A DNA stretch of 64,000 nucleotides from Escherichia coli (lineage in GTDB: Bacteria > Pseudomonadota > Gammaproteobacteria > Enterobacterales > Enterobacteriaceae): assembly GCF_048403405.1 (NCBI RefSeq), contig NZ_CP183129.1; one strand, written 5' to 3'. The stretch's first letter is position 1; each line of letters opens with the position of its first letter. This document shows, piece after piece, positions 62,028 to 63,833 of this stretch. Both the position numbers and the translations under genes were made by a program. The notes under the pieces are model-generated. The model was not told the DNA's origin. It ran no database searches and was given only the letters and a program-made list of their open reading frames with translations.

Positions 62028-62867
62028 GTGGATACGGAATTGTTAAAAACTTTCCTGGAAGTTAGCCGAACGCGTCACTTTGGTCGAGCGGCTGAATCGC
62101 TCTATCTGACCCAATCAGCCGTGAGCTTTCGAATCAGACAACTGGAAAATCAACTGGGTGTGAATCTTTTCACCCGCCACAGAAACAATATCCGTTTAAC
62201 CGCTGCCGGTGAAAAACTACTGCCTTATGCAGAAACGCTCATGAGCACCTGGCAGGCCGCCCGTAAGGAGGTGGCGCATACCTCACGACATAACGAGTTT
62301 TCTATCGGTGCCAGCGCCTCATTGTGGGAATGTATGCTTAATCAGTGGCTGGGACGTTTGTATAAAAATCAGGATGCCCATACAGGCTTACAGTTCGAAG
62401 CGCGAATTGCCCAACGGCAGTCTCTGGTAAAACAGCTGCATGAACGCCAGCTTGATCTTCTTATTACTACTGAAGCGCCCAAAATGGACGAATTTAGCAG
62501 TCAGTTGCTCGGGTATTTCACTTTAGCGCTTTATACCAGTGCCCCTTCCAAACTAAAGGGAGATCTTAACTATCTGCGACTGGAATGGGGGCCAGATTTT
62601 CAACAGCATGAGGCAGGTTTGATCGGTGCTGACGAAGTTCCCATTCTGACAACCAGTTCTGCTGAACTGGCACAGCAACAGATTGCGACGCTTAATGGTT
62701 GCACCTGGCTACCCGTCAGTTGGGCGCGTAAAAAGGGCGGCCTGCATACCGTTGTCGATAGCACAACACTTTCACGGCCGCTTTATGCCATATGGCTGCA
62801 AAATAGCGATAAAAATGCGTTGATTCGCGATCTATTGAAAATTAACGTGCTGGATGAAGTGTATTAA
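62028..62867 (+). CDS. hdfR: LysR-family transcriptional regulator HdfR
   Basis: 279-aa ORF with N-terminal wHTH ([40 protein letters not shown]). Confidence 0.92.
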
Positions 62868-62925: not shown

Positions 62926-62951
62926 TAAATAAATATCCTCCGGCATAGCCG
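62926..62951 (+). terminator. Probable hdfR intrinsic terminator
   Basis: CCTCCGGCATAGCCGGAGG followed by TTTTT. Confidence 0.55.
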
Positions 62952-63636
62952 GAGGTTTTTCAAATGCGCCTATAAGGCTCTCTTACCAGCCGCGCCCTAA
63001 CAGGCGCACACGATCTGACATTTGCATCCAACTTCGTTACTTACGGCCCGTAAACGGGCTGCCCGGATAGGGAATCGATAACTGCTCTCCCATTTTATCC
63101 TCTTCAAGCTGGTGCTTTATGTAATCCTGTATCTTCGCCGTGTTCTTACCCACCGTATCGACGTAGTACCCTCTGCACCAGAACTCCCTGTTCCTGTATT
63201 TGAATTTCAAATCACCAAACTGCTCGTAAAGCATCAGACTGCTTTTCCCTTTCAGATATCCCATAAAGCCGGATACGCTCATTTTGGGCGGGATCTCCAC
63301 AAGCATATGGATATGATCTGCACAGCATTCAGCTTCCAGAATCCGTACACTTTTCCACTCACACAGCTTTCTCAAAATACTGCCTATTGCTCTACGCTTC
63401 TCTCTGTAGAACACCTGTCTTCGGTATTTTGGCGCAAAAACTATGTGATATTTACAGTTCCATCGGGTGTGCGCTAAGCTCTTTTCGTTCCCCATTGGGA
63501 CCCCCTTTTGATTTCTTGTTTGACACTTGCAGTTGCCAGACCGCAAGGTGTTTTAACAAATCAAAAGGGGTTTTAATAACTGGCTTAAAGCTGAAAGCTT
63601 TCCGGAACCCCCAGCCTAGCTGGGGGTTTTCTGTGC
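62952..63636 (-). mobile_element. IS200 insertion sequence (IS200/IS605 family); boundaries approximate to about 30 bp
   Basis: Contains Y1/HuH transposase gene; upstream (minus strand) shows the characteristic IS200 left-end structures: terminator-like hairpin AACCCCCAGCCTAGCTGGGGGTT (63607-63629) and an RBS-sequestering stem (CCCCTTTTGA / TCAAAAGGGG) ahead of the tnpA start. Confidence 0.8.
63037..63495 (-). CDS. tnpA: IS200 transposase TnpA (HuH Y1 single-strand transposase)
   Basis: ORF 63037..63546; start at MGNEKSLAHTRWNCKYHIVFAPKYRR (152 aa); HuH motif HIHMLV; near-identical to Salmonella IS200 TnpA as recalled. Confidence 0.92.
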   Translation of the reverse strand: MGNEKSLAHTRWNCKYHIVFAPKYRRQVFYREKRRAIGSILRKLCEWKSVRILEAECCADHIHMLVEIPPKMSVSGFMGYLKGKSSLMLYEQFGDLKFKYRNREFWCRGYYVDTVGKNTAKIQDYIKHQLEEDKMGEQLSIPYPGSPFTGRK

Positions 63637-63637
63637 A

Positions 63638-63666
63638 CAAAAAAATCCTTAGCTTTCGCTAAGGAT
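63638..63666 (-). terminator. rrnC operon intrinsic terminator
   Basis: Minus strand after trpT: CCTTAGCGAAAGCTAAGG hairpin followed by TTTTTTT. Confidence 0.75.
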
Positions 63667-63672
63667 GATTTC

Positions 63673-63748
63673 TGGCAGGGGCGGAGAGACTCGAACTCCC
63701 AACACCCGGTTTTGGAGACCGGTGCTCTACCAATTGAACTACGCCCCT
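63673..63748 (-). tRNA. trpT: tRNA-Trp
   Basis: Revcomp matches AGGGGCGTAGTTCAATTGGTAGAGCACCGGTCTCCAAAACCGGGTGTTGGGAGTTCGAGTCTCTCCGCCCCTGCCA. Confidence 0.95.
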
Positions 63749-63756
63749 AATTAGGG

Positions 63757-63833
63757 TGGCGGAACGGACGGGACTCGAACCCGCGACCCCCTGCGTGACA
63801 GGCAGGTATTCTAACCGACTGAACTACCGCTCC
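63757..63833 (-). tRNA. aspT: tRNA-Asp
   Basis: Revcomp matches GGAGCGGTAGTTCAGTCGGTTAGAATACCTGCCTGTCACGCAGGGGGTCGCGGGTTCGAGTCCCGTCCGTTCCGCCA. Confidence 0.95.

Follow-up and report, generated by a model that had tools for sequence, protein, structure and literature searches.

An IS200C element at the rrnC terminator of Escherichia coli and the hairpin-plus-T-run context of IS200-group insertion junctions

Introduction

Insertion sequences of the IS200/IS605 family transpose as single-stranded DNA and insert 3' of a short target without duplicating it (PMC3333891, PMC2806898). IS200 of Salmonella enterica has a single gene, tnpA, encoding a 152-aa Y1 HUH transposase (PMC4513863), and lacks both terminal inverted repeats and a target duplication. 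Its left-end hairpin, located approximately 10 nt from the tip, is a bidirectional terminator that acts against impinging transcription with ∼85% termination, and repression by a stem-loop, the antisense RNA art200 and Hfq has been shown for the same element (PMC4513863, PMC5435999). The left-end hairpin is the same in IS1541 of Yersinia pestis and Yersinia pseudotuberculosis. IS608 of Helicobacter pylori and ISDra2 of Deinococcus radiodurans encode homologous TnpA proteins and have subterminal hairpins at both ends, with a left end that abuts a short conserved target, but they also carry tnpB and use targets of 4 to 5 nt (TTAC and TTGAT, respectively) (PMC2806898). In the IS200 group, by comparison, the target is a T-run ending in TT, nearly always after a hairpin.

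The ends and insertion sites of IS200 and IS1541 were reportedly described by Odaert (1998) and by Beuzon and Casadesus (1997), and the 1998 study is said to have noted IS1541 insertions beside terminator-like hairpins. An external upstream terminator is present for 40.21% of 20,314 IS200-family copies, a stronger signal than that of every other family (preprint 10.1101/2025.07.22.666184). In the searchable literature, outside which the 1997-98 IS200/IS1541 papers fall, no explicit target rule, nucleotide-exact junction or right-end mimicry was found, save the family-level statistics of that preprint.

Here, an element of this kind is characterized in a 64,000-nt stretch of E. coli DNA, referred to below as the window. 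Positions 62928-63638 on the minus strand are interpreted as a complete, probably transposition-competent IS200C of the IS200 group, inserted 3' of the rrnC terminator T-run, and we place the probability of this whole explanation, judged from the DNA sequence, at roughly 0.93. Every testable defining feature of the IS200 group of the IS200/IS605 family is found in the element, which shares with Salmonella IS200 the single tnpA gene, the 152-aa Y1 HUH transposase, the left-end terminator hairpin approximately 10 nt from the tip and the lack of terminal inverted repeats and target duplication. The two do not differ substantially; the length is 709 to 711 bp here, depending on the assignment of a terminal TT, versus the 707 bp quoted for Salmonella IS200 (PMC4513863). 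The element is thus a known insertion sequence (IS) at a rare but unremarkable site, and the association with terminators is already known. What is added is the exact ends, a corrected anatomy, an independent double insertion into the rrnC terminator and a nucleotide-level junction rule, together with a resemblance between the target and the right end of the element.

Results and Discussion

The insertion site and the exact ends of the element

The end of the window has the E. coli gene order comM (yifB)-maoP-hdfR, after which the 3' end of rrnC (trpT-aspT-rrfC) lies on the opposite strand. In the open reading frame (ORF) listing, hdfR (279 aa) occupies 62028-62867 on the plus strand and is convergent with rrnC. 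The last gene of rrnC is trpT (tRNA-Trp; 63673-63748, minus strand), next to aspT (tRNA-Asp; 63757-63833, minus strand), both located with ARAGORN, and to rrfC (5S rRNA; Rfam), which runs on the minus strand from 63888 past the window end. The intrinsic terminator of trpT/rrnC, recognized by terminator scan and folding at 63639-63666 on the minus strand, is the target of the insertion and lies outside the IS; it consists of a stem at 63666-63645 and a T7 run at 63645-63639. The IS is located immediately 3' of this T-run, in the same orientation as rrnC, and its right end is 61 nt from the hdfR stop codon. The closest database match is E. coli FDAARGOS_448 (99.8%), in which the RefSeq gene set is identical and the tnpA ORF is named “IS200/IS605-like element IS200C family transposase”.

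The uninterrupted hdfR-trpT junction, represented by a K-12-like genome (L001) and a second one (L133), reads CAGAT-A8-TCCTTAGCTTTCGCTAAGGA and contains a single hairpin between hdfR and trpT. In silico excision of 62928-63638, whose top strand reads GTGCACAGAA...GGAGGATATTTATT, yields CAGAT-A8-TCCTTAGC, an exact match to both empty sites with zero duplicated bases. The ends were set by this explicit deletion test, as a MAFFT alignment of the occupied and empty sites misplaced the gap inside the hairpins. No terminal inverted repeats pairing the two IS termini were found in a repeat search of the element, and the empty-site test in two genomes indicated no target-site duplication, both as stated for IS200 in the first-pass annotation. 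The comparison with an uninterrupted junction had been proposed there, together with the view that exact ends cannot be set by repeats; the deletion test fixes them to within 2 nt.

Other parts of that earlier description require correction. The element had been placed at 62952-63670, a start 24 nt inside the IS and an end 32 nt beyond it that takes in the whole rrnC terminator hairpin, since it is 62928-63638 whose removal rebuilds the empty site. A supposed hdfR terminator at 62937-62955 is the right-end hairpin of the IS, which recurs in every copy of IS200C and IS1541 checked at other loci and is absent from the empty hdfR-trpT site. The insertion consequently does not lie between an hdfR and an rrnC terminator: the junction has only one native hairpin, whose T-run is where the IS is located. 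The statement that the IS adjoins the rrnC terminator hairpin was right (stem 63645-63666). For annotation in general, the IS200 right-end hairpin looks exactly like a host terminator, for which it had been taken here.

Two small sequence differences were observed in the flanks. The lineage of the window has one G fewer in the hdfR 3' flank (GAGAGG versus GAGAGGG in K-12). The homopolymer at the right end (62927-62930) is one T shorter in the window than in its closest relatives, the reconstructed empty site having T8 versus T9 in FDAARGOS_448, and this difference could be due to slippage or sequencing error.

Transposase

The sole gene-like ORF of the 711-bp element is tnpA (63037-63495 including the stop codon, minus strand; 459 nt), and there is no tnpB, which 711 bp is too short to hold. 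The 152-aa product contains the motif HIHMLV at residues 61-66, with the HUH histidines at H61 and H63, and a putative catalytic tyrosine, Y125, that aligns with the conserved tyrosine of the structures 2ec2 and 2f4f. In family searches it reaches 147.7 bits with the NCBIfam equivalog transpos_IS200 (cutoff, 55) and 4.4e-38 with Pfam Y1_Tnp, and it matches Y1 transposases in the PDB at 4e-23 to 1e-14 (2ec2, 4e-23; IS608 TnpA 2a6m, 4e-19; 2xm3, 2e-16). Over its full length, the inner 709 bp of the element is 100% identical to copies that other E. coli strains carry at different loci and that are annotated as IS200C by RefSeq. The first-pass identification of a 152-aa Y1 HUH ORF with HIHMLV in an intact IS200-family element, rather than a tnpA remnant, is borne out by the family scores, the presence of both ends and this identity.

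Hairpins and regulatory structures

The left-end hairpin (63606-63628, minus strand) has a perfect 10-bp stem and a 3-nt loop, AACCCCCAGC-CTA-GCTGGGGGTT, the loop reading TAG on the minus strand. The window contains it a single time and 100 shuffles not at all, and it is presumably the hairpin bound by TnpA. Between it and the cleavage point lies the 10-nt left-end tip, GTGCACAGAA (63629-63638, minus strand); by analogy with IS608, its A-rich 3' part may act as the guide to the T-rich target. The tip pattern (G/A)T.....GAA is kept in nearly all of the junctions among the matches listed from the scan described below.

A second stem-loop, at 63502-63570 on the minus strand, was detected as an inverted repeat and by RNA folding (-40 kcal/mol; z = -4.2); it ends just before the AUG and would hide the ribosome-binding site (RBS). 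Both structures, which had been recognized earlier as the two IS200 left-end stem-loops on the tnpA strand, lie inside a full-length match to Rfam STnc490 at 63505-63628 on the minus strand (146 bits; gathering score, 56). A putative art200 region was assigned approximately to 63487-63576 on the plus strand, by homology with the published description (PMC4513863); complementarity to the tnpA strand is implicit in the sequence there. No sigma-70-like promoter was detected for either tnpA or art200 in a consensus scan of the window, a negative result that agrees with the weak and undefined promoter reported but has no confirming power.

The strand of STnc490 differs between sources: the Rfam model matches the tnpA-sense strand, whereas STnc490 is equated with the antisense art200 in the literature (PMC4513863, PMC5435999), and the name appears to refer to opposite strands in the two. 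Weaker Rfam matches below the gathering score (YrlA, 29 bits; NsiR1, 20.8; plus-strand STnc490, 22) were dismissed as chance or as the opposite-strand reading of a palindrome.

The right-end hairpin (62937-62955, minus strand), found by folding, terminator scan and inverted-repeat search, reads CCTCCGGC-TAT-GCCGGAGG (i.e., CCTCCGGCATAGCCGGAGG) and is followed on the top strand by a 9-nt tail, ATATTTATT (62936-62928), while the plus strand reads the hairpin followed by TTTTTC. Its region is 78% identical to that of the left-end hairpin in direct orientation, as expected of the two TnpA-binding hairpins of this family, and on the top strand of IS200C each of the two has GAAAA on its 5' side.

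Proposed transposition, silencing and effects on neighboring genes

By analogy with the family, the element would move by single-strand “peel and paste,” in which the top strand is excised as a circle and pasted into a single-stranded lagging-strand template, 3' of a T-rich target ending in TT. The GAAAA 5' of both hairpins may pair with the T-rich cleavage sites, like the guide tetranucleotides of IS608. Terminators on the lagging-strand template would offer a folded hairpin and T-run resembling the right end, that is, a hairpin and 9-nt AT-rich tail ending in TT. The GC skew of the plus strand of the window is -0.031, a measure that across 64 kb points only weakly to the direction of replication, and on the K-12 map rrnC is co-directional with replication. 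On these two grounds the top strand of the IS, which is the rrnC sense strand, would be the lagging-strand template, and the orientation is consistent with the lagging-strand-template bias of the family.

Expression of tnpA may be kept low by the upstream host terminator and the left-end terminator hairpin, with the RBS-hiding stem-loop, art200 and Hfq predicted to add to the silencing. On the other side of the element, the hdfR transcript would meet the right-end hairpin and TTTTTC as a new terminator-like 3' end. This combination was called by the terminator scan, whereas the native hdfR-trpT hairpin has a T-poor tail on the plus strand and gave no terminator-like call. The IS probably provides hdfR with a new 3' end and places further obstacles in the way of antisense read-through out of rrnC. 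The rrnC terminator hairpin and T7 were left intact by the insertion and two further terminator-like hairpins were added in the same direction (scan; PMC5435999), so that read-through towards hdfR is more likely to have been reduced than increased. The insertion is probably close to neutral for the host.

Distribution in E. coli

Among 5,426 complete E. coli genomes, 2,063 contain IS200C at ≥80% coverage; the number of places per genome reaches 35, and its median is 1. Copies 100% identical to the inner 709 bp occur at sites that include lacZ/lacY, pqqU/mcbR, fdnI/yddM, soxR, exbD/yghA and a prophage lom gene. A second rrn operon is affected in other strains, where IS200C follows the terminator of aspU. 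Only 6 of the 5,426 genomes have an insertion at hdfR-trpT, and in 5,420 the site is empty; the insertion is a lineage marker. Five of the six carriers are near-identical to the window and have 21 to 25 matching places each, which corresponds to roughly 20 IS200C copies in each of these closest genomes. The sixth carrier is the poultry strain MB20, which has a K-12-type hdfR allele and an IS that differs at five positions and is located 1 nt further into the T-run (T8|IS versus T7|IS); the allele, the five differences and the offset indicate that MB20 represents an independent insertion into the rrnC terminator.

The earlier suggestion that IS200 is absent from K-12 fits the data. The K-12-like strain AML001_ev03 and a BL21 derivative have only three places each for a query containing tRNA-Asp, which we take to be the three tRNA-Asp genes of K-12; this is consistent with the absence of IS200 from both.

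IS200 is usually described as dormant. The ∼20 near-identical copies in the genomes closest to the window, compared with a median of 1 place among carriers, and the presence of 100% identical copies in several strains show a lineage-specific expansion of IS200C in the relatives of the window. In E. coli strain 7/2 (L003, positions 401-1109), the intergenic region of lacZ and lacY holds a copy that is oriented antisense to the operon and might have a polar effect on lacY. The hairpin preceding the left end of this copy has a T-poor tail (GGTTATT), and the target is thus atypical.

Insertion junctions of IS200-group elements

In all E. coli copies examined, the left end lies directly after a GC-rich hairpin and T-rich tail. 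The wider occurrence of this arrangement was assessed in a scan of one genome per species (GTDB) with the exact 23-mer of the left-end hairpin (20 bases specified), which returned at least 120 loci. These included Y. pestis (IS1541), Vibrio ruber, Mailhella, Enterococcus, Ruminococcus, metagenome-assembled genomes (MAGs) of other Firmicutes, Oxalobacter and Saccharibacteria; no E. coli or Salmonella record was present among the matches listed. A filter on the bases flanking the hairpin kept unrelated hairpins out of the junction counts. All counts in the next paragraph refer to 112 distinct left-end junctions, which include those of E. coli together with those of Y. pestis IS1541, Vibrio, Mailhella, Enterococcus and Ruminococcus among the matches listed. 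Some 23-mer matches were rejected as ordinary terminators without an IS, in Pseudomonas (L057, L059 and L094), Pantoea (L022) and Clostridia (L017 and L065).

A perfect hairpin and T-tail ends exactly at the IS in 87 of the 112 junctions, compared with 1.0% of random positions and 6.2% of positions after TT. With a fold-based test, 107 of 112 junctions fall directly after a hairpin and T-tract (2.6% for random positions), and in 81 of these 107 the last G:C pair of the stem is 6 to 9 nt from the junction. T is found at each of positions -7 to -1 in 72 to 106 junctions, and TT occupies -2/-1 in 91. The right end of the IS is laid out in the same way, its hairpin being followed by 9 nt of which the last two are TT.

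One proposal is that IS200-group transposases target intrinsic terminators by structure and sequence together (a hairpin, 6 to 9 nt and a terminal TT on the lagging-strand template), so that the target mimics the right end of the element itself (hairpin and ATATTTATT). The preference would be built into the chemistry and conserved from Enterobacteria to Firmicutes, rather than produced by selection. We consider the odds of this proposal to be even, and the mimicry of the right end is a geometric resemblance only. Such a rule (hairpin, T-run, TT, IS) predicts the landing sites of IS200, IS1541 and their relatives and would also explain how IS200-type elements stay silent and harmless.

The strongest competing explanation is that the transposase reads only the T-run, through the A-rich bases 5' of the left-end hairpin, and that the target hairpin is incidental, long T-runs being found mostly in terminators. 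IS608 chooses its target through a 4-nt guide beside the hairpin, and the GAAAA preceding both IS200C hairpins could play such a part. Other occurrences of the same T-rich hexamers are also already terminator-like in 41% of cases. However, 96% of the IS junctions counted above are terminator-like, and a T-run alone is thus insufficient as an explanation given the 41% in hexamer-matched controls. The hairpin is enriched beyond the effect of the T-run, to which selection could add, and recognition of the T-run alone appears doubtful, if possible.

A less probable explanation is survivorship, in which insertion is widespread and only harmless, silent copies located after terminators persist. A position behind a terminator is neutral to the host and protects tnpA against read-through, and upstream terminators have been interpreted as a persistence niche (preprint 10.1101/2025.07.22.666184). 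Persistence does not account well for junctions that are precise to the nucleotide, as reflected, among the junctions counted above, in the TT at -2/-1, the dominance of T from -7 to -1 and the 6- to 9-nt spacing from the stem. Furthermore, the two independent insertions into the rrnC T-run are just 1 nt apart, other neutral intergenic positions are almost never used, and head-to-tail copies lie exactly at the right end of another copy. Survivorship as the source of the association is accordingly considered improbable.

Assignment of the terminal TT

The boundaries of the element slide by 2 nt: TT is present at both flanks, before the left end and after ATATTTA at the right end. The cleavage points are consequently not fixed exactly by sequence. 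The alternative to the 711-bp element is one of 709 bp (62930-63638) with a 2-bp TT target duplication, which is formally possible. It satisfies the empty-site arithmetic equally well, and TT is found at both ends in 35 of 36 complete copies. In the remaining copy (L116), the left end is preceded by CT, yet TT still follows the right end, as it does in all 36. This single copy speaks for TT as the terminal dinucleotide of the element and against a duplication, and the family makes no target duplication (PMC3333891), so that a 709-bp element with duplicated TT is regarded as quite unlikely.

The 711-bp element could, finally, be a domesticated REP-associated tyrosine transposase (RAYT) or a decayed remnant rather than a mobile IS200, but this is rejected as next to impossible: the match to NCBIfam REP_Tyr_transpos is weak (32.2 bits) and falls far short of its cutoff (80), the element retains both ends, which show 100% identity to those of many copies at different loci, the closest genomes hold ∼20 copies, and a sequence found at many loci, in up to 35 places per genome, is missing from hdfR-trpT in nearly all genomes (5,420 of 5,426). 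No REP sequences were seen by eye in the IS flanks in the window.

Related elements

The ends of IS1541 resemble those of IS200C: the tip (GTGCCCAGAA) differs from GTGCACAGAA by one base, and the right end, CCGGAGGATATTTATT, is the same. Measured from the tip to ATATTTA, copies of IS1541 span 708 bp, versus 709 bp here, and in the junctions examined in Y. pestis NCTC5923 they likewise follow a hairpin and T-run.

Hairpin conservation extends far beyond the Enterobacteria. In the exact-match scan, the 20 hairpin bases were identical in IS200-like elements of MAGs from Firmicutes, Saccharibacteria, Elusimicrobiaceae and Desulfovibrionaceae (L013-L016, L031-L043, L058, L066-L072, L093 and L106), while the neighboring IS sequence was too diverged to align with IS200C. 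Such identity across phyla suggests either strong constraint or horizontal spread.

A solo left-end hairpin was observed in Dickeya undicola 2B12 (L097, positions ∼650-760), flanked by inverted copies of the tip (GTCTATAGAA ... TTCTATAGAC) and without tnpA. It is bordered on each side by a terminator-like hairpin and may represent either a MITE-like derivative or a palindromic remnant.

In Y. pestis NCTC5923, IS1541 also forms head-to-tail tandems (L108, positions ∼336-346; L109 and L111), joined as ...CCGGAGGATATTTATT|GTGCCCAGAA, that is, ...ATATTTATT|GTGCCC. This joint equals the right-end/left-end joint expected of the excised circle, and either the right end of one IS1541 was used as a target by another copy or the pair arose as a tandem junction.
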